Shown one piece after another: positions 2,466 to 34,914 of a stretch of DNA of 64,000 bases. Location: contig CM119371.1 in the NCBI GenBank assembly GCA_051294905.1, positions 25,732,001-25,796,000 on the forward strand, in the 5' to 3' direction. Source of the stretch: Botryllus schlosseri (lineage: Eukaryota). Below the pieces are notes generated by a model that saw only the letters and a program-made list of their open reading frames with translations, was not told the origin of the DNA and ran no database searches. Position 1 is the stretch's first letter, and the number at the start of each line of letters is the position of its first letter. A program made the translations under genes and the position numbers.

Positions 2466-2551
2466 TGACAACCACACCGACAATTTGATATTTTTGTATT
2501 TTCTTACAGCGAACAGCGACAAAATATACACCAACAACGACTCCGATACAT

Positions 2552-10029: not shown

Positions 10030-10700
10030 AAAGTGCGAATCACGACCGCACCCATAAGAACACATGGCGAATCACCAACACAATCTATACGCGAAAGTAC
10101 GGCATGCGAAAGTACGATGTGCGAGAGATGCCTACACCCGAAAGTACGATATGCCGACGCAACCATAAGAACACATAGCGAATCACCAACACAGCCTATA
10201 CGCGAAAGTACGACATGCGAAAGTACGATGTGCGAGAGATGCCTACACCCGAAAGGGCAATTCACGGCCGCACCCATAAGAACACATGGCGAATCACCAC
10301 AGATCCCGTAAGAATACATGACAGGCACATCACCGACGCAGCCTATACCCAAAAGGGTGCCGTCACCAGAGATACCATAAGAAACAATGGCACATCACCA
10401 GAGATCCCATAAGAACCAATCGCACATCACCAGAGACCGCGTAAGAAACAATGACACATCACCAGAGATCCCATAAGAACCATTGGCACATCACGAGCGA
10501 TAGGGGGTCTGAAAGGGTACCATCATCACTACGAGTTTTCACGGCAGGTCATGAGCGAGCCCTATACCTGAAAGGGTGGGGTCACCAGAGATCCCATAAG
10601 AAACAATGGCAAGTCACCAGCGATAGGGGGTCTAAAAGGGTGTGGTCACCAACACGAGTTTTCGCGGCAAGTCACGAGCGGGCCCATAAGAACCCCATTG
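10030..10700. repeat. Subterminal tandem repeats: ~111-bp units, then 32-bp units, sharing a CCCATAAGAA core
   Basis: 111-bp units at ~10051, 10162 and 10273. CACCAGAGATCCCATAAGAAACAATGGCACAT-like units at 10364, 10396, 10428 and 10460. Confidence 0.9.
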
Positions 10701-10728
10701 CGTCATGCGAGCGATCGTATATACTACT

Positions 10729-11312
10729 TACGGCCCACTTTTCGTTTGGTCAAAGGCAATTTGACGTTAATGTGTGACCGGCTTGTCCAGCATTAAATTT
10801 GATAAAACGGGTATCAATGGGAAGTTATCAACGTATTGATTGCTAAAATATGGATTTTATTCTGTTGGTGGCCCTAGAACTCCCCAAAAAACCTCGAATG
10901 TTGCATTGTAAGTGAGTTTGGTATCGTGACGCAACGATGCCGTCTGAGCAGCTCAGGAGCAAATGCGCACAAGAGTGAGATGTGAATGCTCAATCGATTG
11001 CGCAGCAATGGCCAACACGCTTGCAGCTTGCGGTGCTCCTCACATGCTCCAAGACATCAATGCTGCATCACAATACCAAACTCACTTGCTTATTTTGGGG
11101 AGTTCCAGGACCACGAGCAGAATAATTTTTTATTTTCGCAATCAGTACCGCAGTAGCTTTCGATTGATACCCGTTTATCAAATTTCATACTCGGCAAGCC
11201 GGTAAAACATTACCGTCAAATTGCCTTCGACCAAATGGAAAGTGTGATGTACACTAATTTCACTGAACCGTGAGATTTGCTGGTGTCCAAACCATATAGG
11301 ACGCCATGGTTT
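10729..11312. mobile_element. Long-inverted-repeat MITE, left end truncated at the Polinton-like terminus
   Basis: 10740-10900 is inverted to 11090-11240. Related copies lie at ~14330-14600 and 35424-35977. Confidence 0.75.
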
Positions 11313-12572
11313 GTTGAGTGCGTGGTTGAACCAAGTCACAAAAGTCATTCTCTGATTGTAACATTTGACGCGACGACTGCGAGTACCAGTAATTCTACAG
11401 AAGGTCGCGCCTCGCGCTCTAGTCCAAATTACAATTTTCAGTCACAAATCATCAACGGGTCATGTATTGCGATCATAAACAAGTAATGTCACGTAATAGT
11501 TGATCTTCCACTGCGTGGTAAATTTTGAAAGTGATGTATTAGTGAAGTTGTGCGAGTAGTTTCAGGCTTCTGGAGTAGTTTTAGAGCGAGTTTTAAGTTC
11601 TCAAAGTAAAAAAAAATTCGAGTTAAATATTGTCGAATACTTCGAAATCCAAAATGCCGTCGCGGGCCGCACAAAATGGTCTCGCGGGCCGCGTGTTTGA
11701 GACCTCTGCTTTAGTCCATCGATGGTGAATCTGAGGCAGTGGAAGGGAAATTATGTGGCCGTATACACTTATTTGGAATAGGATGTGTTGGCAGCCGTCA
11801 ATATTCAAATTGAATTTACGAATTGATTCCCTAATTCATGAGAGGCTTGCATTATTCTTGAAATTCTGAAAGGGACTATGAACAATTTGGCCACCCAAAG
11901 ATGCAGCAACGGCATTGATAACTTTGCTAAATTTTCTTAGACACCCCCTATGCATCAACTCTACCGATGAAGGATAAATATTTGATTTAATATGCGAAAA
12001 TTTACTAATATCAAAGATGAAATACACTCAAGAACATTGAGAAATTTTTCGCGCTTCGCGCGACTATAATTTGTATGCTTATGGTCATTCAGAAATTGAC
12101 TAATCAGTAATCACGATGTGCTCGTCGCCCATGTTAGCGTTGTATTGACATAGAGTTATCAAAACGTGGCCGTTAACCAGCGTTGCCTGTTTGTATATCG
12201 ATATAGAGGCCATGCGGCCCGCGGCCTCGGCAAATTTTGAAAAGTGGCCCGCGACCCGTTTTGAGTTGGCGACCCCTGGCCTACATCGATGGCATGTATT
12301 GATTTGAAGTGCGTTTTGGTGCCAGTAGTGTGTGTATATCTACTAGTAATATATATGTCACCATGTATGCACACGGATTTATTGTGGCGTCACATATGGT
12401 TGCACGAAATTACGATTAGCCGTCTATAGCAGTGATTCTCAACCTTTTTCACTTCGCGGACCGGTAAAATTTCAAAAGATATTCGGCGGACCGGTGGACC
12501 TTAAAAATTCAAATTAACCCAAGATGTAATGCATGCAAATGCAGCCGTTTTTCTGCAAGTATGGTGCTAGAG

Positions 12573-13415
12573 CAGGAGTGGCCAACCGTTTTGCTCTTCA
12601 CGGCCGCATCTCGATTACTTATATGGATTCCTGGACATAGTCGTAATGAACTAACTGGACGCGAAAGACCTGTGTTCAACTGTGCATGTCCATTTCCGGC
12701 GAACTCTGGACTTATCAACTTTTTCATATCGTCTTGATATACGCACCGAATTCACTACATAGTGGTCATATCAGAAATACTCACTGGGAGCGATCATGAT
12801 CGTGCGAAGCGCGAAAAATTTTTTACGCGTCACGAATGAATTTCGTCATTAATATTCGTAGTTTCACATATTACTCCTAAATATTTATCCTTTCTCAGCC
12901 AATGCGATCAGATTCATCGGTAGAGTTGATGAGGGAGTGTTTTCGAAAATTTAGGGCAAGTAATAAATGTTGATGCATCTTCGGGTGGCCCAATTGTTAT
13001 TATAGTCACTTTGATGGGTGATGTTATTTCTTGACCTCCCATCAGGATTGTCGGTATAGTGGAAAGATCTTGGAATCTCCCAACCGCACCAGAAACAAAT
13101 TACTTTTGCAACGATCGCACGATTCCAAGTTGGTAATTCTATATCAGGTGCATCATTTTCCTCCGCCCTTCGCATCTGTAGTGTGGGGCTCGGATTGCAA
13201 AGGGCGCTATACGGTTATATAAAAAATCGAAAATGAAGTCGCATTGAATCGTGCACAGCGCCAAGAAAATTTCAAAATTATTGAAAATATATCAAAAATT
13301 CGGCAGTCTATCCGTAATTTCAATTTTCAAGTCGACGGCCGCCAACAAATGCTAGTTGAAATAATTGTCTACGGCCGCCCAAATTTCCTTTTACGGCGGC
13401 AGGGAGGCCACCCTG
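12573..13415. mobile_element. hAT MITE (family C) nested in R
   Basis: CAGGAGTGGCC...GGCCACCCTG termini; TSD TGCTAGAG/TACTAGAG; homologous to 49173-49676. Confidence 0.8.
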
Positions 13416-13538
13416 TACTAGAGAGTGACATTTTGAGGGTTTTGTTCGTAATGGAATATGTTTGTGATGGTATTCATGTGATTTCACTTTAGTGTCTGCT
13501 GAGTCGAGGTAAAATTGAACTGTCCAAATAGACATAGG

Positions 13539-14882
13539 CAGGCCGTGTTATTTTTGGCATATGCCAAAACTGCCAAAAATAACTTATTTTTGGCATTTTT
13601 CGATTTTTATTTTTGGCTGTTTTGGCATTGCCCTCTAAATAGATAGTTTCAGCCTCAAATTAGTCACAAAAACGCTTTATTTGGGCTAGTTTGTCAAAAG
13701 ACACCACAAAATGTGCAGCATCCGCGTATAATCAGTGCCAACAAACAATAAGAAAAAACCTAACGATTACATAGGTTAATAATATCAAACGAAACCGCAA
13801 AATGTGCAGTACCCATCGGAATCGGTGCCAATAAGCAAAAAAAGAAAGAAAAGCCTAACAAACACGCTCAACAGCTGATTGTTACAGCTGTTGAATAGAC
13901 TTAAATCGTTTGCACTGTAACAGTGCTTCCAAACTCAGGTCAGCTAAGTTTCTCCTAAATTCATTTCTCGCCCAGCGAATCTGGGAAATATCGGCTTCAA
14001 CAGTAGCCGTTGAGGGAAAGAATGTTGCCAGTCATCCACAAAAGGTTTTCGGTGCTTCAAAATCTTAGGACGGCCGAACCGGCTTCCAGGCATCATGAAA
14101 AGAGATCACTTCGCCAGTGCCATGGATCTCATCGCGGAAAGAATTTTCTTCCCGGTCCTTTTCCATGAGTTTCCTGTGTTGTCTCTCAACACATTCTATT
14201 TAGTAGCCCGACTATCATTTCTCCTTCAGTCTACCGATATATTTTCGGTGGACTTTTGTCACTTCAGGAGGCTTTAATATTACCAACTCGCAAGGAAGAG
14301 ACCTGGGAAGGTTAGCTTGTTTAAGAACATTGACGCAACAAGACTGTCTGGCAAAACGAGACTATGCAGCTCAGAAATAGCCAGACAGTTTGTTGCGTCA
14401 CAATGTTCAACTCGATCACAATGCAAAAATCGTGGTTGATTTTGGGGGTTCCAGTTCCATGAGCAGAATATAATTTATATTTTAATAATCAGTACTGTGG
14501 CAGCTTCTCATTGATACCCATTTTATTAAATTTAGCGCTCGACAAGCCGGTCAAAAATGCTCGTAAAATTGCCTTTGGACAAATGGAAAGTATGACGTAA
14601 ACCAAATGCGGTCAACCGTTCAATCCCGCTGTGCCCACACAACACCATGCTTTCACCCCTAATGGGTGGGCTGGACCCAGATTAAGAAACTTGCCTTTCA
14701 CAAACGCTCTTCTCGCTTGTAACGTGATCCTGTTAACACAACACCATGAACGAAATACACTATTTGGCAGGCCGTGTTATTTTTGGCATATGCCAAAAAT
14801 TGCTTATTTTTGGCATTTTCAAATTTTTAATTTTGGCAGTTTTGGCATCTGGCTCCTGAAATGCCAAAAATAACACGGCCTG
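13539..14882. mobile_element. hAT-type element with 22-bp TIR CAGGCCGTGTTATTTTTGGCAT and an extra internal left end at 14768
   Basis: Perfect 8-bp TSD GACATAGG at 13531-13538 and 14883-14890. Confidence 0.9.
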
Positions 14883-15464
14883 GACATAGGCTAATTTTGC
14901 TTCAAAGGCCGTGGATTAACCGAACACGGCAGCTCGAATAATATTCTTCTCTTCGACAATATCCAGAGATGGAGCGGTTTGGAGTAGGACCAGGCACCTT
15001 GTCGAGCTGTCTTGCTCAAATCCCACTACTACCAGACGTAGCCTACTACGAGTACAAGGCGCCGCACGAAAACACCTGACAACAGCGATACCTGGCCATC
15101 CACAAAACTAATAAATCGAAAACGAATGATTGCACGAATTGCGCGGTTTAGCGAGTCAGGTCTTACTTGACGAGTCGCTCGTATGTCCTCACCAGAGACA
15201 GCGTGATTTTTAAATTAAATAGAACATGTTTCCGAGCCTAATCTTACCTCACGTAGTTCTGCAGCAGTGTAAAATTTGACGTTATATTTATTTTACCAAT
15301 GGACAAGCCTTCAACATCTTGCATTATAAAATTAGGTATAAAATCCTAGTATTCCTCGCAGACCGGCAGTAAAGTCGTCGCGGACCGGCGGTTGAGAACC
15401 ACTGGTCTATAGTACTTGCGGTTACAAGCGTCCATTTGTGTCGCAACAACTGTTTTGGCTAGCT

Positions 15465-15790
15465 CAGTGGTTCCCAACCTTTTTCGACTCATCGCCCCCT
15501 TTTCAGGCTCAGCGCCGATCATCGCCCCCCAGATTTTGCGAACAGAAAAATCGGTATACAATCTGTAATCATCGGCGGGTTGACTAAAAAAAAGATCAAC
15601 TTCTCAACTTTTCGGCTCGTTGTCGAATTTTACACTTTTGCAACTAAATTTCCGTGGTTTGACTAAAAAAATGTCATTCCGACGACTTGACTACAATATA
15701 GCCGTTATAACGCGTCATCGCCCCCTTCGTAATTTTGCCCCCCCCCCCCTAGGCAGGCAAATCGCCCCCTGGTGGCGTTGGAAACCACTG
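15465..15790. mobile_element. hAT MITE (ATCGCCCCC-rich family)
   Basis: CAGTGGTTCCCAAC TIRs; perfect TSD GGCTAGCT; second copy at 57190-57542. Confidence 0.9.
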
Positions 15791-16454
15791 GGCTAGCTGC
15801 ATGACTGTGTGTCCACTGGCCAACGTTGCGTGAATACTCGCTAATTCTGCTTGTCACTAGTATTTATACTGATCGCTTTTAATGATCACAGAACGAATGG
15901 GTAGTTTGTTATGCTCATCCCTTCACCAAGCCAAATTAACAAAGAAGTGCGAGCCGTTTTCAATTGAATGGTTGTCGGACCATGTGAAAACGGAAGACAT
16001 AAGTAGGTACGCCCGAATACCTTTAATTACTATTTAGGGGTCCTATACCTTTTCCGACACACCTGACTCGATCAGCTCAACCGGTAAATCTGATTACGTG
16101 AGCAGAGAGAGAGCATAAAAATTACTTGCAATATTCCAACGCAATCATGAATTAGATAAATTTTTTGCGCTTCGCGCGTTCAGGCGTCACACCTACCCAA
16201 CGGACTCCCAATGTAGATGAAAAGCAGCGGCCAAAATACACAACCCAAGGGGGGCTGGGGGCGAAGCCCCCCGGAAGTTTGATATATCGCCCTATGGGGG
16301 GCCTGGTTGCGCACTGTTGTCCAAGGGCCTGCGCAGTGAGTTGGCGTGTTTGCGCGGACTCGTGAAAAATTAGAGGGACATTCCTTATGTACATGTACAT
16401 GGTATCGGTAAAAGTCAATACCTGTGATAAACCTAATACCACTAAATATAGTTC

Positions 16455-16726
16455 TGTTACTTTATTTGGATTTAAACGGAGATATGATATTCTTTTTCGC
16501 CTGCACCATCGAGATGCTTTGACGACGGAGTTGCGATACGGCCCCATGAGGTCATCTAGTCTGCGCCCCCGTTTTTTTCTCCTCCATGCTATCCGTGATT
16601 GCTGAGCGCCTAGCAGGATAGCTGCGGATACCAATTTTCGAGTCTTTGGTATGACCCGGTCGGGGATCGAACCCACGACCTACCGCTCGAGAAGCCGGAC
16701 GCATAACCATTACACTATCTCGCAAG
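16455..16726 (-). mobile_element. tRNA-derived SINE, possibly with a Meta/MESC-type central domain
   Basis: Minus-strand A box TAGTGTAATGG and B box GGTTCGATCCC, followed by GGTCATACCAAAGACT...CCTGCTAGGCGCTCAGCA. Paralogue at 40480-40651. Confidence 0.85.
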
Positions 16727-19457
16727 TCTTCTATGTGTAAAAATAACGAGTAGATTGAACTTTTAAACTTTATTGTACGACTGAGCCGATTTTCTATCCA
16801 GCCACTAGAGCAAAAATGAGATATTTCAGTAAAAATAGCCCCTTGAGTTATCTTCATAACAAGAGGTCCTTTTAAAAAAACAAGGTCGTATTCGAAATCA
16901 GTGCCCTTCAGAACCCCCACAACCACTCTTACTTTGTCTACCTAAAAATATGTTTTGACCAGTGTTATCATTTCAACTATAACATGCAATTTCAATTGGT
17001 AGGTGAAACTGTATTATATAATCATACCAAAGACTTGAATAATAATCCACTTACCGAAAACATTCCTACGAGCGCTTCTTCCCCTGCTCTGCGGAGTGAT
17101 ATATCCTGAACGCAAATGAAAGGAATCGGTCGGATAATTGTTATTTGTATAAAAAATCAGTGCTAATGATACATGTATCAAAAACAAACGGCGAAATTGG
17201 GCATTTCGCCTATTTTCACCAGAGCGTAGGTTGCCAATTTGTTAATAACAGTTGAAGATATGACTTTACTCCCATTTGAATGTGCTAACACTAATCAAAT
17301 GTGGGAATTTTATTGTTAGGGATGGTGTGAACCTCTGAATGGTTCAAGTTCGTGCGAACGCGAACCATTTTGAAAGGTTCTGTGTGAGCCCGAACGTGAA
17401 CCTCATGACGTTAGGTGACGTCATATTGCTAACTCCAACCCTATATTTCAGTGAAGTGATAGCCTATATTAATATACACGATACCTAGCGACGAGTAGGG
17501 CCACATAATGCCACAATACATAAGTTCATAACGTTTTAAACGTCGCCAAATGTATCAACTGGGCAATCAAATGATATAATAATCCCATAAAATCAATATC
17601 TTCCGTCGCCTTGCCAACAATTTCGACGAGGACTTGCAAGGGAATATAAGCTTACGCCTTAATGGTCTAGGCCAGTGGTTCTCAACCGCCTGTCCACGGA
17701 CCGGTGCCGGTCCACGACGACTTTCCAGCCGGTCCGCCAGGCATTTTACAATTTTATACCTTAATTTCAAGATGCAATATGTTGAAGACTTATCTATAAT
17801 GATTATTGATAAAATAAATAAAACATCAAAATTTAAACTGATTGAGAACTTCGTGAGGTAACATTAGGTCTGGAAACATTTGACTTGAAGTTCAAGCAGT
17901 GTCATTTGACGACATGCGAGCGACAAGTACGAGATGACTCGCCAAATTGCGCAGTTAGCACGATGATGCAGTAGCCTGGGCCCTATCGTAAATGCCGCAC
18001 CACAAACCCTTAATTGAAGGGACCGAGCTTGAAGGGGGCATAAAGGTATTTCTTAAATGAACAAAAATTATACCCTGTTTTAGTAAAAACTTCATCCAAT
18101 TGTTTTCATTTTTTTACGCTTTGTCCTGTTTTGTGTCACTAAATATCTTGATTATTGGGTGCCCTTCTGCCAAGAGATACGCATGATTTATAAGATTAGG
18201 CATTTTCGGCGTCAGTCATTGCCGCACCACGACGCACCAACACATGATGAAGTTTAGGCTAACTGCCCTTTGTAAGTCAAATTGTCCAGAGGCACCGAAA
18301 TGACTGGAACTGAATTTCGTTGTCATGGCAATCTGTAACCCACAGGAACAACGCCATCCCACAGAGAAAAGTGATTTTCCAGTGAAGAAATAGCAATTTG
18401 GAATCATGTGCGTCTTTTTGCTTAGAACGCTTGTGCGATTTCAATATCTATTCACTATATAACAGACAGTAGGTCATGAATTAATGACAAGCAACGAAGT
18501 AAATATTGTAACACACCAGCTCGAATATGTTTAATTTGATTACATACCCTAAATTTTCCAAGACGACACCTCACTCAGCCCTACCGGAGAATTTGATAAT
18601 TCTGAAAGGATAAAAAAATTATAACAATATCTACGCAATTACCAATATTATTGATTGATTCGGTCATGAATTATAAGTACTGGTGAAAGCATCCATCTAA
18701 CTGTGGGGGCCCAAGACCAACGTTTTTCGGGGGGTTAACTGACGACACGTCTTTTCGGCACTGGTTTTGTGTATAGCCATTGGCCATTTATAGCTGTTGC
18801 TAGGTGTTTTCGTGCGGCGCATTGTATTCGTAGTAGCAAGAGTAGCCTCGCCTGGTGGTAGTGGCTAATGAACATTCAGCAACGTAGCACGACAAGGTGC
18901 TTGGTTCGACTCCGAAACACTTCTTCTCTCGATATTGTCGAAGAGAAAAGATTATTCGAGTTGGCGTGGTCGATTAAATCCACGCATACTGCGCGAAAGA
19001 CTGTAAACCAGTGGTTCTCAACCTTTTTAACCTCGCGGACCGGTAAAAGTTCAAAAAATATTCGGCGGACCGGCGAACTTTCAAAAATCGAAATCAACTC
19101 AAAACGTGTAGTAGCCTATGCAACTGTTTTATGCAAGTATATGATGCTAGAGAATGACATTTGAGGGGTTTGATCGTAAATAAAGATGTCCATGATGGTA
19201 TCCATCTGATTAGTGGGTCTGCTGAGTCGAGGTAAAATTGTCCTGCCAAAATAAACGTGCTAGCGCCGGGAGTCGTTCACAGTCTTCCACGCCGAAGGTC
19301 GTGGATTTAACCGACCACGTCAACTCGAAAATTGATATTCTCTTCGACAATATATCGAGAGAACAAGCGCTTCGGAGTCGAACCAAGCACCTTGTCGTGC
19401 TACCTTGCTTATTGCCGACAACCACCAGTCGTAGCTTACTCTGGCTATACTATGAAT

Positions 19458-20444
19458 TAGGAATGGTGAGAACGTGACGTTCACGTTCGCGTTCTGTGTG
19501 TCAACCTCGGAAATTTAGAGGGTGACGTTCACAAACGAAGCTTCGTAGGTTCTAGGCTGTGAAACTTTTTAATATATTAAAATTTTTCACATAACATCAT
19601 TGGTTCAAATTCTTTGCTTTTCAACTTTGGGCTACTATGCATGACGCTGGCAATATAAAAAAAATCAACAATAATCGAGCATGCACCTTGTCAATCTCAA
19701 ATATTTCACTAGCTTTGAGAAAATAGTTTGATCTAAATATCCAGCTTTCCGTTTGTGAATACTTAGTGACTCTCTACTTCGAGCATGACCCTCAGTCCCA
19801 CAACGTCAAGATGGAAATACGCTACATCTAGGACTAGGTAGTCAGCGAATCATCCTCCATATTCCACCGATCAATGAAGTTGGTATGAAGAATACATCAC
19901 TGTCTACTGTGAAAAATCTAACAGGCGTATGGGATCGATCAGCATTTTATATGTTTATCGTATCGTAAAAACCAAATCTGTGCGATCGGGATGTTGGTTA
20001 CTGTATAACGTGTTAATAGAGTAATATCGGAAGCAAGTATACAATCCCGTTCTACACTTTATCTCAATATCAGTATATCTATAGTCAGATGTGTCAGACA
20101 TTGTCAGGTCTGGAACAAATCGTTGAGGTGTAAGCTTGTATTCCCTTGCAAGACCTCTTCGAGATTATTGGCAAAGCGACGGAAGATATTGATTTTAAGG
20201 GATTCATATCAATTGATTGCTCCAGATGACACATTTGATGACTTTAAAGTCAGCCCGTACTTCAGCATTGTGGCCTCAGTCGTCGCTGTACATTAATATT
20301 TCACTTCACTGAAATATAATAGGTCGAAACTTGCAATTTGACGTCAAGTAACGTCATAGGTACACGATCGCGTTCACACAGAACTTTTCAAAAAGATTCG
20401 CGTTCACACGAGCCTGAACCTATCAGAAGTCCATACGATCCCTA
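19458..20444. mobile_element. hAT family D non-autonomous element
   Basis: TAGGAATGG...GATCCCTA termini; perfect TSD CTATGAAT. Confidence 0.88.
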
Positions 20445-20833
20445 CTATGAATGCAATGCGCCGCACGAAAACACCTGACTACAGCTATACCTGGCCAGTG
20501 GCCATCCACAAAATCAGGGCCGATAGTCAGCCTAATTGCCCAAATACGGTAGTCTTGGGCCCCACAAAGCGATACACCAAACTTTTAGCTAGGGGGCATC
20601 GTCCCCAGACCCAACAGTTGGTTGTTTCCGCCAGGACTTGCGAACACATTCAATCTACTGAGGATAAGCAGATAGTTTTCTATAGGTTATTCATGACTGA
20701 ATCGGTCAATAAAATTGTTAATTTCATATATATTGCTGAAAAATTGTACTCTATCAGAATTATCAGATTTTCCGGTAGAGTTGATTGAGGTGTCGTGTTG
20801 GAGAATTTAGGGCACGTAATAGATAATAATTAA

Positions 20834-22498
20834 GGCCGTAAGGTGCAGCTAGACTTGCAAAATTTTCAAATTGCGATATTTTCTAAACAGTTGATCCTAG
20901 ATTCTCAAAAATTGATGTGTGAACTATTCATACCCAACTTCATATACTGTATCAATTTCAGCATTTCACAATAATTCCTTGGGCCAAAATTGGGGGGAGA
21001 TTGGTTAATCGGACGGTTAGTACGAGGAAACGCCTGTCTCATCGATGGATGCTAAGAGATTCTAACCAATGCTTTATAAAGTGTCCTGAGGCCTGTAGGC
21101 ACCTGGTGAACTACTTGAAACTAACGAATTTTCGAAAAAGTTGATAAAATATTTGTTTTGTACCAGTACAGTGCCGGATTTTCGATTTTTTTAAATAAAA
21201 TTCAGATCATAAGTAGCATTGCAAGTACACTGAAACTCCTAGAGCAAAAACAATAAGTTCACCAGGTAGAACAGTCTTACTGCTTGTACTGAGCCAAGTT
21301 TGATAAGAATTGAAGGTCTTCTGATATCAAATTTTCCTCTCCCCGTGACATCATATTACGAAAAACTAGAAATGGGAGAAAATCAACTTTGAAAATTGAA
21401 AAATATTTTGGTGAAAAAGTAAAGCAGGTATTTAAAATTTGTTGCTTTTAAATGGTGCAGGCAGGCTTTAATCAGTACATAGCCAAATTTGAAGACAATT
21501 GAATGTGCCTAAATGCAAAATAAGTCGTGTAGAGTATGAGTGATTTGATCACTTTTTACTCAAAACTGCTATACCACACTTAAAAAATTTGCAAACCTTG
21601 ATTGGAAAATAGTTAGATGTTGTCAAAATGAAACAACATATCAAGAATACTGCGACATTGTCAAAATACCAATTTCAGTTGGTATGAGTCAACATACTAC
21701 ACTCATATTTCCCCCCGAGATCTTTCAAACATACAATTTTTAGCATCAACATTAGCAGCAACATCATTATGCATCCGGCACTAATTTGAGTTGCATAACC
21801 GTTATGCATAGCCTGTGCAGTTCCAATATCCTTTGCCGGATGAGCCACAGTCAGGCAATTCACAATATTTAGAACAACTGCATCAAAAATGTAGAAATTC
21901 CGAGGAAAAACGATTCCGCCGAATCCAAACCACCATTATCAGATGTTGAAAGCTCCAATCTTTTTCAAAGGATTTCTTCGATTATTCAGTTCAGGAACCA
22001 CTGGTTCTTTTCTATCATGGTTTCATCTTTTCCTATGCCAAATGACTTCGTAGTGTATGGCTTTGTCCTAATCGTGAATTAAGCTATCAACAATATACCA
22101 ATGCATCTTGAAAAATATACAATATGATGAACAACGCTCACAATGTCAACATCAACAGCTTTCAGCTCTTCCCAGGTTAGCGATCGGCAGCTAGGCTGCT
22201 GGCCAGCTGTATGTTTTGATAGTCACGCCTCATCGATCAGACATATGGCTCTTCTATTTATTGTATAAAATCAGCATTGCAGAGTGGTTATAGACAATTT
22301 CGAGCGAGTTTGAATGAACGAAAGTGTATGGGGGTGACTTTCTCAGAAAATGGGATATTTCAAATCGTATTTTAACATACTTCTAATTCGAAATCAGACA
22401 AGAGCAATGCATTTTTGAAAAGAGCTAGTTTCATAATTTAAGATTCTGCAATAAAAAAAATTTGGAAAATTTTGTGATTCCAGCTGCACCTTAGGGCC
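20834..22498. mobile_element. Kolobok-like non-autonomous DNA transposon
   Basis: TIR GGCCGTAAGGTGCAGCT / AGCTGCACCTTAGGGCC, flanked by TTAA and TTCA. A TTAA target with purine-purine termini fits Kolobok. Cys-containing remnant on the minus strand near 21770-21865. Confidence 0.65.
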
Positions 22499-23784
22499 TT
22501 CATATTCGGGTGGGCCTCTTGGACTAATTACCTAATTAGTCATTGCCACTCATTTTTCGTCAAATGACACGGGTTGAACTTCAAGTCAAATCGAACATGC
22601 TCCCAGACCTAAAATGTTACTTCACGACATTATGAAGGAGATTAAAAATTGGTATTTGTTTTATTTTATCAATGGACAAGCCTTCAACATACTGCATCCT
22701 GAAATTTTGTTATAAAATTGCAAAATACCTCGCGGACCGGCTGGAAAGTCGTCGCGGACCGGCACCGGTCCGCGGACCGGCGGTCGAGAACCACTGCTGT
22801 AAACGGCTCTCGGCGGTACCAAGTATGTCTGGGAAGGCAATTTTACCTCGACTCAGCAGACTCCATCACCGGAAAATCACATGGATACCATCACAAACAT
22901 AATAAATTACAATCAAAATTCTCTAGCACCACATACTTGCAAAAACGGCTTTAAACAATACATTTTGGGTTAATATCGATTTCTGAAAGTCCACCGGTCC
23001 GCCCAATATTTTGGGTAGTAGTATATAAAAGCTAGAGCAGAGGCGCAGCAGCATTTGATCACGTGACAATTTTGAATTTCAAATCAAACAGAGAAAAAGC
23101 GCGCGAAAGAGTTATGTCAATACCACTTATATGCGGGACAATGGGTGACAATAACGGGTGTGTGAGGAGAACGAAGCGTGACAGCATAATGGGGTGTGTG
23201 TGCTAGCGACCGTTATGGTATTGCACAATGGGTAATACCCTAGTCTGAAACTAGCGATATTGCACCATACACAGCCTTGATCACGTGACAAGTTTGCAAT
23301 GACGCGCGTCTGAATTTACTTGATGATAGTGGGAATCTCTCACGTGTGTCAAAATGTATGATTTGTTTGAATTTTACGGTAATGAAGCAGGCGAGAGCGC
23401 TACGTCCAATCAATCGCCTCGGCTCTTAATTAAACAAACGCGTCGCCCGCCCGCCCGTCGCGCTTCATTGAAAAGTAACGTTTATTGCGTCTCTAGCGCT
23501 TGCATGAGAGGACAATGGGTGACAATAGATGAAATGATATGACGTATATAAGAGTATGTTTTCAGGCGCTCCAATCTACAATGGGTGACAATAGGTGTCA
23601 ACACTTGACGCGCGTCCGAAGAGGTGAAATGTCATTCACGGTAATGTATGTACAATTTACTTAATGATGCTGGGAATCTCTCACGTGTGTCAAAATGTAT
23701 GAGTTGTTTGAATTTTGAGGTAATGACGCAGGCGAGAGCGCTAAGTCCAATTAATCGCGTCACCTATTATTAAAACAAACGCAT

Positions 23785-24269
23785 CTAATTATTATTTATA
23801 AATAATTTGAAGACGGACCGCCCATCGCGCGTAAGATACTTTAGATCAGACATGGAAAAATCCCCAACAACAACAATATATACTAAAGATAACACTCGGA
23901 AGAGAGAGAGGAAAAGAGGGTGAATGCTCTTGAGGTATATTCTACCCCTGGCTTATTCCGAGTGAAATAAGTTTGCATTACGTTAACGGAATGTATGTTC
24001 AAAAAGTTTAACTAATTATTATTTATAAATAATTTGAAGACGGACCACCCACCGCGCGTAAAATACTTTAGATTAGACATGGAAAAAAACCAACAACAAC
24101 AACATATACTAAAGATAACACTCGGAAGAGAGAGAGAGGAAAAGAGGGTGAATGCTATTGAGGTATATCCTCCCTCTGGCTTATTCCGAGTGAAACAAGT
24201 TTGTATTACGTTAACGGAATCTATTTTCGAAAGTTTAACTAATTGTAATGTATAAATAATTTGAAGACA
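23785..24269 (+). repeat. ~227-bp tandem duplication (2 units plus a partial one), left arm only
   Basis: CTAATTATTATTTATAAATAATTTGAAGACGGACC at 23785 and 24012, partial at 24239. Confidence 0.9.
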
Positions 24270-26194
24270 ATCTGTTGTTGATATTGCAAAATTTTGTATT
24301 GTATTTTGTGTTGCTTCTACAAATATGCGATGTCTTTTAAATTGTTGCGTATTAGATGAAGATACATTAAACTCGTTGTATAATGCTCTCCAAAATCATG
24401 AGGTGAACATCTGGTCTGCATCTGTTTTGTTTTATAACAGCTGATGTAATCGGTAACATAGTGTGTGCTAGTTTTAATAATACTCAAGCATGGCATGTCA
24501 TTAACCGATCGAATTTATCATCAATAGAGTATTCTTGATCACGTTTACTGATAATATATCTGTGCTTATGAGGAAGAGGGTTTCCATCGCTCATTTATTC
24601 ATTCTAATGGTAGTTCCCGCAGTTTCTACATTATCCTATTGACGTTTATTAGCATATACCAGTTTCGAGATCACGTACCGAAATTGACAAAATTGTTCGG
24701 TCGTTAACAATTATTTCTATGACTAATTTTATTACAACCTTATGGTGGTTTTCAGTCTCTAAAATGGTTCTATGCCAATTCCGAGAAGAACATTACCGAA
24801 AATTTCAGTATAGAGAATGGACACCTGAATGAAGGAGACAAGAAAACTTTATGGAAACAATTGCACTCGTCCTGTAAAACGTTATTTTCGGAATAAATAT
24901 GTATCTACACATGATAATTTGGTGTTCTTATTCATTCACTTTATAATGCTTGTCGTGATCGCCATGGACTGATAAGAAAGTAGGTAGGTACATAGGACAA
25001 TAACTCAACGCAGGTTGAAGTCAATTTGCTCACTTGAATGCATAGATGTATAGAATCTTCGAGAAATTATTCCCTCAAATAGTAACAGCATATCCAGAAT
25101 TTAGATTTGTGTCATAAACACAGTATTTAATCTTTTGGGGTTGATTTTACCGGTTGGGTTGCTGTAATTTATATGACGACAGTGAGGAGTAAGTACGAAT
25201 TTAGACTGCTTTTTAGTGTTTAGCCAAAACTAGACCTTGAACACTTACTGTTTACGCATTCGGAAAACGCTACTTATTGTACTTGAGTAAAACGTCAACT
25301 ATATCATGATAGTGAAAGTACTTTTTCAATGGTCTTGATGAAAGGTAGGAGTTCAATCAAAATTCTACAATGCATTTTCGTGATGCTGAATGAATTATCA
25401 CGACGATAACATAGCAAAATAAATCAATTGATTCATGAAGTAGCACTATGGGATATCACCGTTATAAAAATTACCCTTCGACATGACTTTTTCCGTTGTC
25501 AGAAATTGTAGTGTCAATATATTTCCAATGTTTGGTGCTGCTACGCGTATTTACTCATATCATGCCTACAAGCATTCTACGCATTTTATCTTATGTCGAT
25601 GGGCTTCGTATCATTACGGATATGCAGGGCATATAGTATTGTCAATCTATTAGTCCAAATTTCCCACTTAGGTGAAGCACCGCATGACTTCTGGTTATAA
25701 ACAGTTAATAACATTCGGACATGCGTAATTGATATGTAAAATACTATTTAGCACACGTGAAACTCAATTCGCTTCTAAATTTATCTAAGTTATCACATTT
25801 CACCCAACCTCAGCACTACGTCTGTCGCGGACGTGGTCATGTCGTATAATACCACTAGAAATCCATATAGCTTGGTTGTCTAGAGGTACCTTTGTACATA
25901 CTATTATTTGCAAACACTGATAGAAAATGTTATTTGTAGTGTGTGAAACTGGATTCATTTTTCATAGTTATAATCCGATATGATGAAAAAGTAATACCAG
26001 TCACAAAACATCTGATATTAGAAACAATCGTCATGGCACATTGAACAAATTTCACCGCCGCTGAGGTTTATTATCTCGGTTTGTTGGAACTACAATTGAA
26101 CAGCGGCTGGCTACCAGTAAAACAAGAGGTATTGCTATCCTCACAGGAGCTATTACACGATTTGCATGGAAATTCGTTTGATGTCCATGTTTAT

Positions 26195-26866
26195 TAGGGC
26201 TCTTCAAAAATTACTTTTTTTCTTCTCACATCGTACTGGCTACTTGATATTATTGTTAGGTTACCAAATTCAAGCCTTCACACAAAATTTGGTTCAATTC
26301 CAACCAGTAGCCGCATTGCTACAGGAGAAGAAAGTTTTTATTTATTATACAGAAAGAAGTAGCAAAAAATTTGAAAATTTATTGTTCACCCCTTGAAAGT
26401 GTTAAGTTGTCTATAGAAACGATGTTCACCAAATTTGGTTCAATTCCAATCAGCGGAAGCGGAGATATTGCAGTGGAAAAATTTGAATTATGAATAAAAT
26501 TTTATTTACGGTGAGCAGTTCTCTGATTTTTATTATAGTGGTACCCACTGTAAATACTATTTCATTCAAATCCAAATTTTTCGATGGTAATAGCTCCGCT
26601 CCCACTGGTTGTATTGAACCAAATTTGGTGAACATCGTTTCTATAGACAGCCTAACACTTCCATGGGGTGAACAGAAAATTTTCAAATTTTTTTTTGCTA
26701 TTTCTTTTTATATATTAAATAGAAACTTTCTTCTCCTGTAGCAATGCGGCTACTGGTTGGAATTGAACCAAATTTGGTGTGTAGGCATAAATTAGGTAAC
26801 CTAACAATAATATCAAGTGGCCAGTACGATTTGAGAAGAATAAAATGTCATTTTTGAAGACCCCTA
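26195..26866. mobile_element. Palindromic MITE with TAGGG termini (hAT-type)
   Basis: Long inverted arms; TSD ATGTTTAT/ATGTATAT; related to 44888-45393. Confidence 0.8.
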
Positions 26867-27441
26867 ATGTATATACACCTCTATGCCTCTGTATTTGTTA
26901 GTGGCGATTGTGATTGGACTCTCCGATGCGACGGTTAATAACATCGACAATGAGGTAGTGAGCAAACTGTATTGTCAAGGCAATCTTATAAATTTACCCA
27001 CCGCCTGAAATTTAAATGAGATCTCAGCAGGTCAGTTATGTGGTAACAGAGGTAATAGCTGACAATTCAAAACCTCACACGAAATCAGAGAAAGTTTTAT
27101 TCCTGCCTGCGATAAAATTTAAAAAAAAATGTTTGTTAAGAATTGAAAACGATCCCCATGTCAAATCATACCAATCGTAGACGTATTTGCGTCATGTCCG
27201 CAGAGATAAAAGAAAACTTAATTTCTTCTTTGAAGCAGAGAAAAGCCTAGTTGAGTGCTCCGGAAAGGTAGAAGTACTTCGTCATTGCGCACCTATGTAA
27301 GACTGTGGTTGCTGCTATGCGCATTCTGGTAGTTGGCCTTTGGCGTAAGCCAAAATAGTTCAGAACCACTGTGCTAGTGTGCCGCGAACTATTTTTCATT
27401 TTCAAAGTGTGCCGCGAGGTCAAAGAGGTTGAGAACCACTG

Positions 27442-27740
27442 CTATAATTTATATGACGACAGTGAGGAGTAGCTACGAATTTAGACTACCTTTTTAGTGT
27501 TTAGCCAAAACTAGACCTGAAACACCTACTGTTTACGCATTCGGAAATAGCTACTTGTTGTACTTGAGTAAAATCTCCTATGCCATGATAGTAAAAGTAC
27601 TTTTTCAATGGTCTCGATGAAAGGGAGGAGTTCAATCAAAATTCTACAATGCATTTTCGTGATGCTGAATGAATTATCACGACGATGACAGAGCAAAATA
27701 AATCAATGATATTAAAGTTATAAAATTAGCCTTCGACATG
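27442..27740 (+). repeat. Third, more diverged partial copy of the TIR-arm segment 25162-25485
   Basis: CTATAATTTATATGACGACAGTGAGGAGTA...CTTCGACATGA matches 25162 onward and starts immediately after a hAT terminus. Confidence 0.85.
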
Positions 27741-29539
27741 AATCAACCTATTGAAAATTATCTTAAGAAAACGAATATTATGACCCACTACTACCAAACA
27801 GGGTGATATGGACTAATTTATTCCTTTGTCAGGAATGGTTATACTTCTACTTTTCAGACGTCGTAGCTTCATGCTCTGTTCATATTGCATGTTGTTCATT
27901 TATTTCGCGAGCTCGCGATTGGTTATCGACTTTCTGTTTCTGAAGAAGTTGTTGATGGAAGGTACTCGGTAACGAATTACTCGAGGTTATCAGAGCTTAC
28001 TCTATTACGGTTTGCCTATCTGCTACATAAAGCAACCGAATACATAAAATGTTTCAGACAACAGTAAATACGCTACGTCTTCACAAAAGAACGCGAAGAA
28101 AGCATGTTTCACATAGTATCACGGTAAGAATTGTAATCAAAGCTCACGTGGCTACGAAGGTGTCAGCAAGTAAAATCAGCAAGTCTATATCCGGCTTCCG
28201 GCCCTGATTTAGTAATCGACTCGACCAGCTTTCATCACAAACTTTCACAAATTATTCAATAACAATGACCAGCTAATAAAAGTCGGTAATGTTTAAGTAC
28301 GTTATCATCAAGTCAATACTTGATTTGTTGTAAATATACAACGCATGCATTGGTTTATTCTTGCCTAAAGCGGATTTAGAGATCTTGACAAAGGTATTGT
28401 GATTTATGGGTGTGGAAATTTCCTTGTAACCCAATATTCCCTATGTTCCCGATGGTCCACAGTTAATATTTTGGTATCAGATTGTATAACTCCAACAGTC
28501 GTATCGAACATACACTTTGCCTTATTCCTGGATAAAGCCGCAAAAGTTTAAGTATGAAAAGTTCCTTTTAAAATAATTTTATTTATGTTCCCGACACCTC
28601 ATGACTACTAATTATAATGAGAAATTTTGAAATGGTCGCAGCTAACACAAAATGACTATAATGACACCACTCATGGCTAGAATCTTCAAAACATATATTC
28701 CATCACCTTGATTCAGTAGCTATTATACGCATTTATTCTGGCAATTTAACTGGTGATAGTGGTGCTGTATTATCCCTGAAGTACTTTCTACCATACAAAA
28801 ACAAATTGCAAACGAAATTAGTTCATCCAGAATACTGTTCAGGCAAATGTTGAAGTAGTTGTAAAACATCACGACTTCAGTAAGTAGTACAAGTAGACAA
28901 AATCTACCCGAGTACCACGAGGAAGTATCAATATTCCAAGCATATATAATATCTCAAAAACGTGCCGTGATAAAGTAAAAATAACGTCAGATTCGTGTTC
29001 AGCACCCCAAATTGAGTATTATTGACCAACGAAGTCCTGCCACAAAAATCGTGTAGACCAGTGTAATAGTGAGTATAGATATTACATTCCGTAAGAAATA
29101 ATGGTATATACAATTGCAGTCCTCGGCTGTTGTTTTATGGAAGTCTTCGTAGGTCTGTATGGGAAAATGTCTATTGCCATGTCAATATCTCCCAAACCAC
29201 TTTAGTCAGAACTAAGCCAATGCGCACATATCATATATTGTATTGGAGTTATATTATTTATCACCAAAATCGTACCTGTTAAACCACAGAAACCTGAAGA
29301 AAACTTGATTATAAAAGTTATCATAAGATCTAATTGCTCCAGTTACTCCGCTATCATATTTTGACTTCACGAGAAGATCCGTTATGTTACCTCCGATGTT
29401 TGATACCGATATCCTCACAAAATGTGATATTATCGACACTGAATTGACACTAGCCCCTGAATTTCCCCACCCGCTCGCAATTGGGATATGTTTTATTAAC
29501 CCTCGCTGCACTAATAGGGGTTTATGACGAGACGGCTCT

Positions 29540-30200
29540 GTATGTACCATGTATTGCAAACAGATATTATTGCGATAAATGATTTTTTCCAATCTTCTCG
29601 AATTCTACTGGGGATTGAGTCCAACTGTCCGACAAATATTACATTTAATATTTGTGAGAGTGATTTGCATAGCCATGTGACACTTGAGGTCGTGTGAGTA
29701 AATGCTTCACATATCGCATGTATTGTTCTTTGAGATTATATGCATTCTGATATGACGTTTCAGGTTACTCTTTCGAGAAATTTATTTACCGCAAATATCA
29801 CATGAAATCTTGTTTTTTCCGAAATGCATATCCGAATGGTGTTGGAAGTTACTCCTATCGAGAATTTTCTTTCCGCAAATGGCACATTTATATAGGAGAG
29901 CGCTATGCCTATCGATGTGTCGTTTGTAGGCATCCTTTCCCATATATTCTTTCTCACAAATTTCGCATGCAATCTTTTCCATGTCGCCATGTAATTTCAT
30001 ATGTCGTGTAAAGAACCATTTCCATGAAAATGCTTTACCACAAATTTCGCATTCACACTCTTCCACCCTGATATGGACATTCATATGACGGGTCAATAAA
30101 CCTTTCAATCGGAATGCTCTATCACAGATTTCACACTTCACACAGCCGCGAATGTAGATTGGAATTATTGATGTAGTAAATCTTCGGACAAAAGTATCTT
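29540..30200 (-). pseudogene. C2H2 zinc-finger array pseudogene (at least 5 clear fingers plus degenerate ones)
   Basis: ORF 29782..30141 contains CEICDRAF..H..H, CEICGKAF..H, CEICEKEY..H and CAICGKKI..H. The fifth finger CDICGK*ISRKSNLKRHIRMH has an in-frame stop; more stops and frameshifts follow. Confidence 0.9.
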
Positions 30201-33200
30201 CCCAAATCAGCTGGATGAGTCAACTTACTCTGTGTACCCATAAGAATCCTCCGGTTACTTCTTAAAAAAGTAAAATCTAGAGAAACGGTTGAGTTTAGTA
30301 TGCAGTGCTTTGACGTGACTGTGAAGTACTGAATTAACTACAAATAATCGACTCGAAGAGTTGCATCATATGCGCACATTACAAAATTTACTTCAGTACT
30401 CCTGAAAGTAGAATTACTTTGTTCCTGATTATATTTGTATGGTTCGATGATATGAACATCTATCAACGATTTCGACAAATATTACAATTCAGTGTCTGCA
30501 ACTAGAACTACTTAACTAAGTCGCAACTATAACTATAACTAAAACTACTCACTTTCTAAAATACCCAACTAGAACTAGAACTTGAATTAGAACTTGAAAT
30601 CCTAACCTTTTTAAACTCGACTAAACTAGAATTAAAACTAGAACTACTCACTAATGCCATAAAAGGATCGATATTATTTTGGTACATCAACTCTAGCTTC
30701 TCGGACATCATTCAAAAGAACAGCAGTATCTTGAGTCACGAAAAAACGACGACACGTGTATTTTAGTTGTTCGACAACTAATATTTTTTCAAATGTGCAA
30801 CTAGAACTAGGACCAGAAATACTCACTTTTCAAAATTCGCAACCAGGGCTATAGAAGTGGCTGAAAAAACCGTTAGTTGATCATTTTATCACTTAAATAA
30901 GTGAATTTATCATATATTTCCTTTACTTGCAGTAACGGAATGCACTTTATTTCTCGTGGATTTCACGGGAGTTCTTGTGTCCTATTTCTATTACTATTTC
31001 GATTTTCTAGAACAAAGCGACACTGATATAGTGGTTAAAATTAATAGAAACTAATACCGACTTTTGATTAAAATCTTGTTACGATATATGATCCGTCAGC
31101 TCGTTTCGAACTTGGAAGTTTACGTAAATACCTGCACCCCTTTATCCGACATAGTCAATGCGTTGGTGGTGTTATATCATACTGACGGACAATGGTTTCA
31201 TAACTCATGGGGAATTTCGCTTATTGAGGATGATCAACTGATAACACAAACGCTGAAAATTCACTAGTATGAAAATTTATGAGTGATCACTAGCAATAAG
31301 TATAGTTTTAAGCTTCGAGATCACACGAAACACATTTTGTATTCTGATTTTATTAGCTCTTCGAATTGATAATAACTCACTCAATTCAGAGACATGTAGG
31401 ACTTATTGAACTACTCACTCATTTCTTGATCATCAACCCCAACTATCTAATTGGATAATAATGACACATCCACTCAAAAGCTTGTGTTACCGACGTAATC
31501 CAGTGCTTTCAATTTAGAAATTATTGAAAATTAATGCATCGCATTATAACAGTACAAAAAGTGCGAACTCATTTGTTGCTTCTCATTCTCAGAAAATTTA
31601 ATTCCACCTGTGTAGCAGCGGTTCCGAAGTCATTAAAGGTTAAGAACCGAACTCGAATGGATTTCATTCTCTTACGCAACACCTTAACTTTTAATATATC
31701 GTAAATATCAGATATAGAATCTACATTTCGAAAGTAAGAGATTTCGAGTTTGAAATAGGAGATATTCCAACCACAAATAAACCCACCCGACGGCTATACC
31801 GCTGATGATTCTGACTAGAATCGACTGCCCGGACGTCATTTAACGGAACGGCGGTATCTCGATTCACGAAAAACGGCAACATGTGTTTTCTAGTTTTCCG
31901 ACAGCTAGTATTTTTTCGAATGCACAACTAGAACTAGGATCAGAACTACTGAATTTTTAAAATCTACAACTATATTATTTTCAATTGAGACAATGTGCTA
32001 TGACGATTGTTTCTAATATCAGATGTTTTGTGACTGGTATTACTTTTTCATCATATCGGATTATAACTATGGAAATGAATCCAGTTTCACACACTATACA
32101 AATAATATTTTCTATCAGCGTTTGAAAATAAAAGTATGTACAAAGGTACCTCTAGACAACCAAGCTATATGGATTTCTAGTGGTATTATACGACATGACC
32201 ACGTCCGCGACAGACGTAGTGCTGAGGTTGGGTGAAATTTAATAACTTAGATAACTTTAGTAGGGAATTGAGTTTCACGTGTGGTAAATAGTATTTTACA
32301 TATCAATTACGCATGCCCGAATGTTATTAACTGTTTGTAACCAGAAGTCATGCGCTGCTTCACCTAAGTGGGAAATTTGGACTAATAGATACACAATACT
32401 ATATGCCCTGCACATCCGTAATGATAGGAAGCCCATCGACATAAGATAAAATGCGTAGAATGCTTGTAGGCATGATATGAGTAAATACGCGTAGCAGCAC
32501 CAAACATTGGAAATATATTGACACTACAATTTCTGACAACGGAAAAAGTCATGTCGAAAGGTAATTTTTTATAACGGTAATATCCCATAGTGCTACTTCA
32601 TAAATTAATTGATTTATTTTGCTATGTTATCGTCGTCATAATTCATTCAGCATCACGAAAATGCATTGTAGAATTTTGATTGAACTCCTACCTTTCGTCA
32701 AGACCATTGAAAAAGTACTTTCACTATCATGATATAGGACGTTTTACTCAAGTACAATAAGTAGCGTTTTCCGAATGCGTAAACAGTAAGTGTTCAAGGT
32801 CTAGTTTTGGTTAAACACTAAAAAGCAGTCTAAATTCGTACTTACTCCTCACTGTCGTGATATAAATTACAGCAACCCAACCGGTAAAATCAACCCCAAA
32901 AGATTAAATACTGTGTTTATGACACAAATCTAAATTCTGGATATGCTGTTACTATTTGAGCGTCATTACCTCAAAATTCAAACAAATCACACATTTTGAC
33001 ACATGTGACAGATTCCCCGCATCATTGTAAATTGTACATACATTACCGTGAATGACATTTCACTTCTTCGGACGCGCGTCAATTGTTGACACCTATTGTC
33101 ACCAATTGTAGATTGGAGCGCCTGAAAACATACTCTTGGATACGTCATATCATTTCATCTATTGTCACCCATTGTCCTCTCATGGATGCGCTAGAGACGC

Positions 33201-33230
33201 AATAAACGTTACTTTTTAATGAAGCGCGAC

Positions 33231-33281
33231 GGGCGGGCGGCGGCGGCGGCGGGTGGGCGGCGGCGGCGGGCGGGCGGGCGA
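33231..33281 (+). repeat. GC-rich microsatellite (GGC/GGGC)n
   Basis: GGGCGGGCGGCGGCGGCGGCGGGTGGGCGG... read directly. Confidence 0.9.
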
Positions 33282-33751
33282 CGCGTTTGTTTAATTAAGA
33301 GCCGAGGCGATTGATTGGACGTAGCGCTCTCGCCTGCGTCATTACCGTAAAATTCAAACAAATCATACATTTTGACACACGTGAGAGATTCCCACTATCA
33401 TCAAGTAAATTCAGACGCGCGTCATTGCAAACTTGTCACGTGATCAAGGCTGAGTATGGTGCAATATCGCTAGGTTCAGACTAGGGTATTACCCATTGTG
33501 CAATACCATAAAGGTCGCTAGCACACACACCCCATTAAGCTGTCACGCTTCGTTCTCCTCACACACCCGTTATTGTTACCCATTCTCCCGCATATAAGTG
33601 GTATTGACATAACTCTTTCGCGCGCTTTTTCTCTGTTTGATTTGAAATTCAAAATTGTCACGTGATCAAATGCTACGATTTGATTGGTCCGCCTCTGCTC
33701 TAGCTCTCATATACTACTGAGGTCCTACATGTAGAGTAAGTCGCTCTAGAT

Positions 33752-34914
33752 CAGGGGTGGGCAAACTTTTCAGCTCGCGGGCCGCATTCAACATCTGAAT
33801 CCATTCGCGGGACGCATTAGGGTATAATCGGAATTATAAGTGAAGACGCAAACTTTTGTTTGATTTTATAGTAACTATGGAGACGTGGAAATTATACATA
33901 TAAACCATTGATTTGATGATAACGCACATGCGTCAGAAACATTAACGAGATTTTATGACCTGGCCATCTTCAATTAATTCGTCAAAATTAGGAATGGAAG
34001 TAGGTTGTGCCGATTCTTGGGACAAGATGGAAATTTGAATATGTGAGAAGCGATCAGCTCACATATATGCTGATTCTGAGTTTGGTTAAGCTTCAGACCG
34101 CCCAACGCTGACATCATCATAACCAGCATGATTCATTTAAATACGTTTCAACAAATGACTTCTTAACGTTCTTTTGTGGGGACGACATCAACATAATTTA
34201 CTGTTGTCTCAAAACTTTTTAATAATTCGGTTGATTTATTTCAGACCGCACACATTTCATGTGATACAATGGGCCTACCATCAGTATGTTCCGATTCGAG
34301 TGATGTTTCAAATTGCTGCAACGAATTCATTACAATAATGTCATATTGTGACAAGTAATTCGTCTTGCGTTACCTCCGACATCGAAACAGAAGTACCTTT
34401 CAGTTAATTCGTTACTGATAGCAAAGAATTCAACTTTTCGCTTTTTGTATTCGGTTTTTGTATTCGCTTTTTGTATTGATTTAGACAACCCATTATAAAC
34501 AAATTGAGGACCGAGTTACAAACAATTTGCTCCTAACTGCGCATAAAGAGAACGAATCACGCACGCACGAAATGGTTTTTCCAAGTACAGCACTGAAAGT
34601 TGGCGTTCTAACCCGATATCACAATTACTATCCGAACTAATTATTTCCGTTTTGTGTTTCTCAGATGTTCAGGAACTGGTCGGGCTACTCCGCCAACCAT
34701 AAATTCAAAATATAAAATATTATGATTATAATTTAATCTATCTGATATCATGATAAAGTATCGTTTAACCAAGTGTCTCCATAATCCATAGTAATTAGAT
34801 TTGTATTGCGCATTTTATCAAAATGTCGAATACATTTCTCGATGCCTTCGCGGGCCGCACAAAATGCCGTAACGGGCCGCATGCAGCCCGCGGGCCGTAG
34901 TTTGCCGACCCCTG
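33752..34914. mobile_element. Charlie-type hAT non-autonomous element
   Basis: CAGGGGTGGGCAAACT / AGTTTGCCGACCCCTG TIRs; perfect TSD CTCTAGAT. Confidence 0.92.

Follow-up and report, generated by a model that had tools for sequence, protein, structure and literature searches.

In a 64,000-nucleotide stretch of the Botryllus schlosseri genome (GenBank assembly GCA_051294905.1, contig CM119371.1, positions 25,732,001 to 25,796,000 of the forward strand; hereafter the window, with positions counted from its first letter), two large elements, E1 and E2, carry the same short sequence at their ends. Our analysis indicates that E1 and E2 are probably two independent non-autonomous passengers of Maverick/Polinton elements, which have kept an AGTAGT + ATAT origin. 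An original prediction, made from the letters of the window, had grouped them as giant non-autonomous elements of a fold-back class that share one replication/integration machinery. The fold-back description suits E1, whereas E2 is a terminal inverted repeat (TIR) element with a 6-kb asymmetric interior. Non-autonomous elements with a common machinery fit our data, and comparison with the termini of pPolB-encoding elements points to the known Maverick machinery and perhaps to a single helper. The parts of the two elements are as follows.

1-10728: visible part of E1, a very high-copy palindromic Maverick-ended element whose left end lies off the window
1-3188: left arm of E1, visible part; 11 substitutions and 2 gaps relative to 4053-7198
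1755-2334: 41-bp tandem array in the left arm of E1, mirrored at 4906-5444, with a difference of one unit between the arms
3189-4052: unique central loop of E1, 864 bp
3671-3952, plus strand: intact 93-aa orphan open reading frame (ORF) in the E1 loop, from the ATG at 3671 to the TGA at 3952
4053-7198: right arm of E1, the portion with its mirror inside the window
10029-10685: subterminal repeat array of E1, with periods of 111, 32 and 123 bp and the inward-read core TTCTTATGGG
10719-10728, minus strand: right terminus of E1, AGTAGTATAT(A); another repeat family begins at 10729
23017-33718: E2, 10,702 bp, apparently low-copy, Maverick-ended, without target-site duplication
23017-23729, plus strand: left terminal inverted repeat of E2; 3.4% substitutions and 3 gaps relative to 32960-33718
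23730-25073: segment of 1.3 kb found in the left arm of E2 only, including a 227-bp tandem duplication at 23785-24268
25074-26043, plus strand: inner left arm of E2; 2.8% substitutions relative to 31991-32960
29600-30219 (left limit approximate), minus strand: decayed array of C2H2 zinc fingers in E2, interrupted by in-frame stops
31991-33718, minus strand: right arm of E2, continuous over 1.7 kb, ending in ATATACTACT

The sequence AGTAGTATAT occurs at exactly three sites in the window, at 10719-10728 (minus strand), 23017 (plus strand) and 33709-33718 (minus strand), and its both-strand expectation from composition is 0.36 per window. Among the 34 AGTAGT hexamers in the window only three continue into ATAT, and all three are element termini. 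Read inward, the common prefix is 11 nt between E1 and the left end of E2 and 10 nt for the other pairs of ends, which agrees with the 10-11 nt originally reported for three termini. The accompanying claim that the termini diverge immediately afterwards is correct for E1 against E2. The best local alignments of their first 800 nt score 37 and 43 (shuffle mean, 38.7), and a BLAST comparison of E1 (1-10728) with E2 (23017-33718) gave a best E value of 1.2 and no significant match. The claim does not apply to the two ends of E2, which form one inverted repeat of about 710-760 nt. The chance of sharing the extra bases after AGTAGT is about 0.009 for four bases (ATAT) and about 0.003 for five (ATATA). 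The short terminal repeat and A+T-rich core of these ends presumably resemble the adenovirus origin. The 8-mer AGTAGTAT, found at 7257 (minus strand) and 38035 (plus strand), was judged to be a chance occurrence. A 31-bp stretch at 38035-38065 starts with AGTAGTAT and ends with ACTACT; its flanks do not match, and it is probably also due to chance.

Maverick ends read (AGT)2//(ACT)2 or (AG)3//(CT)3, and 5'-(AGT)2//(ACT)2-3' is the commonest motif in vertebrate Mavericks, according to PMC8097293. The same paper gives 12.7-24.6 kb for intact vertebrate Mavericks, 46-1,447 bp for their TIRs and 6 bp for the target-site duplications of Maverick insertions (PMC8097293). The (AGT)2//(ACT)2 motif is present at both ends of E2 and at the right end of E1. 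The first six of the ten common bases read as this published Maverick/Polinton signature, and the common machinery is therefore most likely that of a Maverick helper and not a new system. The predicted size of E1 (14.3 kb, see below), the size of E2 (10.7 kb) and the 0.7-kb repeats of E2 are near or within the ranges given in PMC8097293.

The subtermini carry a second common feature. The CCCAT/ATGGG cores noted in the original prediction were recovered, with seven inward-read copies of ATGGG in the final 700 nt of E1 and five and four copies at the two ends of E2, against an expectation of 0.46. The co-enrichment of ATGGG with E1 was equalled in 1 of 238 host control windows when free choice of the 5-mer was allowed for. 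The ATGGG copies sit inside family-specific repeat units, TTCTTATGGG in E1 and ACAATGGGT in E2; the counts are therefore not independent, and the bias is suggestive only. From the four or five extra common bases together with the ATGGG bias, we infer that the same helper lineage may have served both elements. The alternative is that E1 and E2 ride different Maverick lineages, ATAT and ATGGG being coincidental, with no single helper. It would account for a motif common to many Mavericks, for interiors and subtermini that do not align, and for ATGGG counts that depend on family-specific units. However, the extra four or five bases are expected by chance in less than 1% of cases and the 5-mer result had been corrected for post-hoc choice, and we regard separate lineages as rather unlikely. 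This alternative departs from a single-helper origin of both passengers in the number of helpers only. ACAATGG words are also repeated in both subtermini (10380-10610 and 23140-23600), in opposite orientation relative to the ends; we take them to resemble a Sox/HMG site.

The symmetry of E1 is directly visible over 1-3188 and 4053-7198 only, and position 7198, where the arm seems to end, mirrors the first base of the window. Over 3,146 aligned positions the arms show 11 substitutions (0.35%); they also differ by a single-base gap and by one unit of 41 bp. Contigs of public sequencing runs were aligned to 5700-25600, and their summed depth was used as a relative index, not as a copy number. In run X1 all bins between 5700 and 10347 had depths of 1.3-3.1e5, and the depth did not fall at 7198; runs X5 and X9 repeat the pattern over E1. 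Because 7199-10347 is as repetitive as the arm itself, we infer that the arm continues from 7199 as far as 10728; if symmetric, the element would then be about 14.3 kb long. The left end, as the mirror of 10728, is predicted at about -3529. The depth identifies E1 as multi-copy. At the right end, the adjoining repeat and its copy at 14.6 kb are 77% identical over the outer 60 nt and 25% identical over the inner 60 nt. The 14.6-kb copy stops close to this point too, so 10728/10729 is a junction but a truncation is not proven. The adjoining sequence belongs to a host repeat family (10729-11311, 14390-14619 and 35446-35975) whose members have a palindromic body and a tail on one side; one of them abuts the right end of E1.

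The two arms of E1 also share variants. Six places in the right arm (5700-7198) that differ from other copies of the family, as selected by the alignment tool (40 of 1,535 rows shown), were compared with the left arm. At five of the six, the window's own letter is present in both arms. At 6388 and 6871 the other letter carries 95-100% of the depth in X1 and X5, yet both arms of E1 have the letter of the window. At the sixth place, 5835, the left arm has the family letter and the arms differ, which looks like a mutation after insertion. The agreement at five of six places indicates lineage variants present in both arms of E1. Such copy-specific variants common to the arms are the footprint expected if a fold-back intermediate is real.

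E2 is built differently. Inverted arms make up 3,411 of its 10,702 bases (32%), and the very long internal symmetry originally claimed for both elements therefore describes E1, with arms of more than 3.1 kb, but not E2. Its outer repeat of 713/759 nt, within an arm of 1.7 kb in all, lies in the Maverick TIR range (about 50-1,500 bp). The two ends differ mainly through indels of 11 and 37 nt, and the right repeat (33226-33280) exceeds the left (23440-23460) by 37 nt in a GC-rich (GGC/GGGC) tract. The interior contains a third copy of a piece of the arm at 27440-27707. A palindromic insertion at 26193-26868, inside E2, and another at 44886-45395 are 85% and 77% self-symmetric, respectively, and about 67% alike. 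Over 23628-25600 the depth was 40-91 in X1 and 258-295 in X5, and two exact-match X1 contigs had depths of 11-17. This suggests a small number of E2 copies, at a level three to four orders of magnitude lower than that of E1.

The flanks of E2 consist of the following sequences.

22797-23012: left flank, a host repeat that stops about 4 nt before the terminus
33719-35263: right flank, another host repeat, which a copy at 19.5-19.8 kb matches up to about 3 nt from the terminus
33752-34914: 1.16-kb insertion in the right flank, starting with CAGGGGTGGGC, ending with GCCGACCCCTG and flanked by an exact 8-bp duplication, CTCTAGAT

From its end motif, we take the left-flank repeat to be a hAT-like miniature inverted-repeat transposable element, and the 1.16-kb insertion in the right flank is presumably a non-autonomous hAT element. 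Copies of the left-flank repeat at 12.4 kb and 19.0 kb run on where the copy beside E2 stops, and the missing continuation, looked for to the right of E2, is absent there. As both ends of E2 cut host repeats within about 3-4 nt, both are real junctions, though not from one clean insertion. The lack of a duplication and the origin of the flanks in different host repeats suggest that this copy was rearranged later. Polinton insertions are reported to have caused local rearrangements in C. elegans (10.1101/2024.01.15.575659).

The condition of this copy bears on another explanation, in which only E1 is a Maverick passenger and E2 belongs to another cut-and-paste family with long TIRs, its 10-mer having arisen by chance or convergence. 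Academ elements, for example, have YAG...CTR ends. The ends of E2 can be read as T-AGTAGT (left) and C-AGTAGT (right strand), the 6-bp duplication is lacking and the zinc-finger cargo is host-like. However, when the ends are shifted out by one base the flanks still mismatch (GGG vs AGG), which is not what Academ-like ends would give, and with two different repeat families as flanks a duplication of any family is unexpected at this copy. Moreover, E2 matches E1 in all ten bases, its ATGGG bias has the same orientation, and the Pfam read-through of E2 described below found no transposase remnant. A separate family for E2 is thus improbable.

The gene content of both elements was searched with Pfam, using 79 of their 101 listed ORFs; those left out lay in tandem arrays, terminal repeats, mirrored arms and some small insertions. 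Only C2H2 fingers were found, and no enzyme family. Six-frame read-through translations, with X at stops, gave no Pfam family in E1 at 1-1742, 2450-4071 and 7100-10051 or in E2 at 23700-26301, 27700-29501 and 30200-32001. As a positive control the C2H2 fingers were recovered from the minus strand of 29300-30301; the read-through covered 26302-27699 in part, and heavily frameshifted remnants could escape it. None of the genes of autonomous Mavericks (pPolB, integrase, ATPase, protease and capsid) was found among the scanned ORFs and frames of E1 and E2. The original statement that there is no recognisable enzyme gene was confirmed for these ORFs and frames. Neither element is gene-free, as E1 has the intact, conserved 93-aa ORF and E2 the decayed C2H2 array (PF00096, E = 1.7e-16 in the ORF scan and 1.1e-19 in the read-through). 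The ORF at 29257-29604 (minus strand) was considered as an aspartic-protease remnant and rejected, having no Pfam or Atlas match.

Seven homologues of the E1 loop ORF, 91-98 aa long and 59-88% identical, were found in ENA/Logan assemblies. They fall into three clusters, at 87, 66 and 60% identity, and in the alignment all seven begin at the same methionine and end at almost the same position. A frame that is intact at 60% identity points to selection on the loop ORF. The protein had no Pfam match and no PDB sequence match, and its best PHROGs match had E = 0.17. Against 1.84 billion representative sequences it gave a strong score for its own cluster only; four further matches were WD40/TPR repeat proteins, in which many weak stretches scored, and were taken as spurious. 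Atlas matches (0.90-0.91 at low recognition) were weak. The predicted model has a predicted local distance difference test (pLDDT) score of 41.7 and contains strands only, with no fold match. A search of viral and metagenome contigs with the loop-gene alignment gave no locus, and sequence look-ups with the loop of E1, the loop protein and the end of E2 had no result. The E1 arm ORFs at 2489-2911 (plus strand) and 2857-3177 (minus strand) have no homologues of similar length.

Several observations weigh against E1 and E2 being Maverick passengers. No 6-bp duplication flanks E2 (TTGGGT vs GAGGTC, 2 of 6 matching), and all lengths from 3 to 10 fail as well. No remnant of a Maverick core gene appeared in the E1 and E2 scans, and descent by deletion is therefore not supported. 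No helper, pPolB or integrase was seen in the material covered, namely E1, E2 and viral and metagenome contigs, and the contigs gave nothing for the termini. The repeat to the right of 10728 may end there naturally, given that the 14.6-kb copy stops at about that point. Among the alignment rows listed, a small part of the total, neither 10728 nor 23017 had a pile-up of ends or a contig across the junction. The six variant places in E1 are the selection of the tool, and assembly polishing could raise the apparent identity of the arms.

An undescribed non-Maverick system of replication and integration for both elements would explain the missing gene remnants and the orphan loop gene. However, the ends equal the Maverick motif of PMC8097293 exactly, and non-autonomous elements are commonly dissimilar to the interior of their helper, as PMC3014272 describes for nonautonomous families of other superfamilies. 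We consider a new system very improbable. It is scarcely credible that the palindrome of E1 is an assembly artefact (a fold-back chimeric read) in an ordinary repeat with an incidental motif at 10728, as the 99.65% identity of the arms, the left end off the window and the lack of a listed contig across the axis (alignment began at 5700) might suggest, because the arms are separated by a unique loop of 864 bp that contains an intact, conserved gene, the arms differ at 11 positions and one 41-bp unit, and three independent contig sets have very high depth to the left and to the right of 7198.

Between the two elements, RNA run X23 reaches a depth of about 270 reads on both strands (bin 16324-16987), and loose ends, about 2,000 in number, lie at 16642 and 16720. 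The piece at about 16642-16723 seems to be short and highly repeated or transcribed. No RNA data set was listed as containing 7200-17000, a result that carries no weight on expression. Rfam had no match over 1-36000.

What is known of Maverick replication comes mainly from a proposed model (PMC4196379), which consists of protein priming at short terminal repeats, a racket-like single-stranded intermediate and integration with a 6-bp duplication. If E1 and E2 are passengers, a helper Maverick elsewhere in the genome would supply pPolB/terminal protein and integrase in trans, and its protein-primed polymerase and integrase would recognise the AGTAGT + ATAT terminal origin. The displaced single strand would then fold on its inverted arms into a racket-like intermediate, regenerating a double-stranded origin. 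In E1 nearly the whole strand could pair, and one arm could be copied onto the other by copying or repair across the stem, placing variants in both arms. E2 may have acquired or retained a zinc-finger fragment, kept a low copy number and been the less successful passenger. This copy of E2 may later have been joined to a non-matching flank, either through recombination involving two copies or through a deletion beside one end.

Two passengers with unrelated interiors naturally single out the cis requirements of the helper, namely ten terminal bases and perhaps oriented ATGGG, and the mismatched flanks of E2 suggest that such elements also rearrange host DNA. A bolder proposal, which is possible and which we hold tentatively, is that the genome houses an ecosystem of satellites, unrelated to one another, that depend on a single Maverick helper. 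The minimal origin would be AGTAGTATAT plus oriented ATGGG, any interior would be accepted, such as the E1 hairpin with its 93-aa loop gene under selection or the zinc-finger cargo of E2, and one arm would be copied onto the other at each round of spread. If this is true, the satellites would provide genomic evidence for a fold-back replication intermediate that has to date only been proposed for Mavericks, and they would be gene-capturing vectors that cause rearrangements.

E1 and E2 resemble autonomous Maverick/Polinton elements in the end motif, in a size near 11-14 kb and, for E2, in terminal repeats of several hundred bases (PMC8097293). They differ in that the core genes were not found in E1 or E2 and that the E2 copy is without a 6-bp duplication; the arms of E1 exceed 3.1 kb, compared with a TIR maximum of 1,447 bp in PMC8097293. 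Non-autonomous Polintons have Maverick ends without core genes, as E1 and E2 do. The suffix N1 in the name Polinton-1N1_DR marks a non-autonomous family, and non-autonomous Polinton families were reportedly described by Kapitonov and Jurka in 2006. Polinton-1N1_DR is named in PMC9341505. Whole-element palindromic Polintons are not described in the literature searched, a scope that excludes Repbase, subscription papers and supplements. The term 'interrupted palindromes' has 0 occurrences in the tunicate genome paper PMC3699833, and the palindromes mentioned in PMC12448946 are multi-gene chromosomal ones only.

Two further systems resemble E1 in its architecture and differ in other respects. Foldback elements (FB/Galileo of Drosophila and TU of sea urchin) have long inverted arms, internal tandem arrays and a variable loop. 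E1 has such arms, arrays and a loop; foldback elements are cut-and-paste elements with other ends, whereas the ends of E1 and E2 are of the Maverick type. Snap-back or copy-back defective genomes of linear viruses are hairpins that keep the terminal origin twice and depend on a helper. Unlike these, E1 is inherited as an integrated, highly amplified element, and no similarity to helper genes is detectable in its interior. Against this background the shared end is ordinary for Mavericks and already known. Less ordinary are an extended common end across two architectures, variants shared between arms and a loop gene that appears to be under selection.

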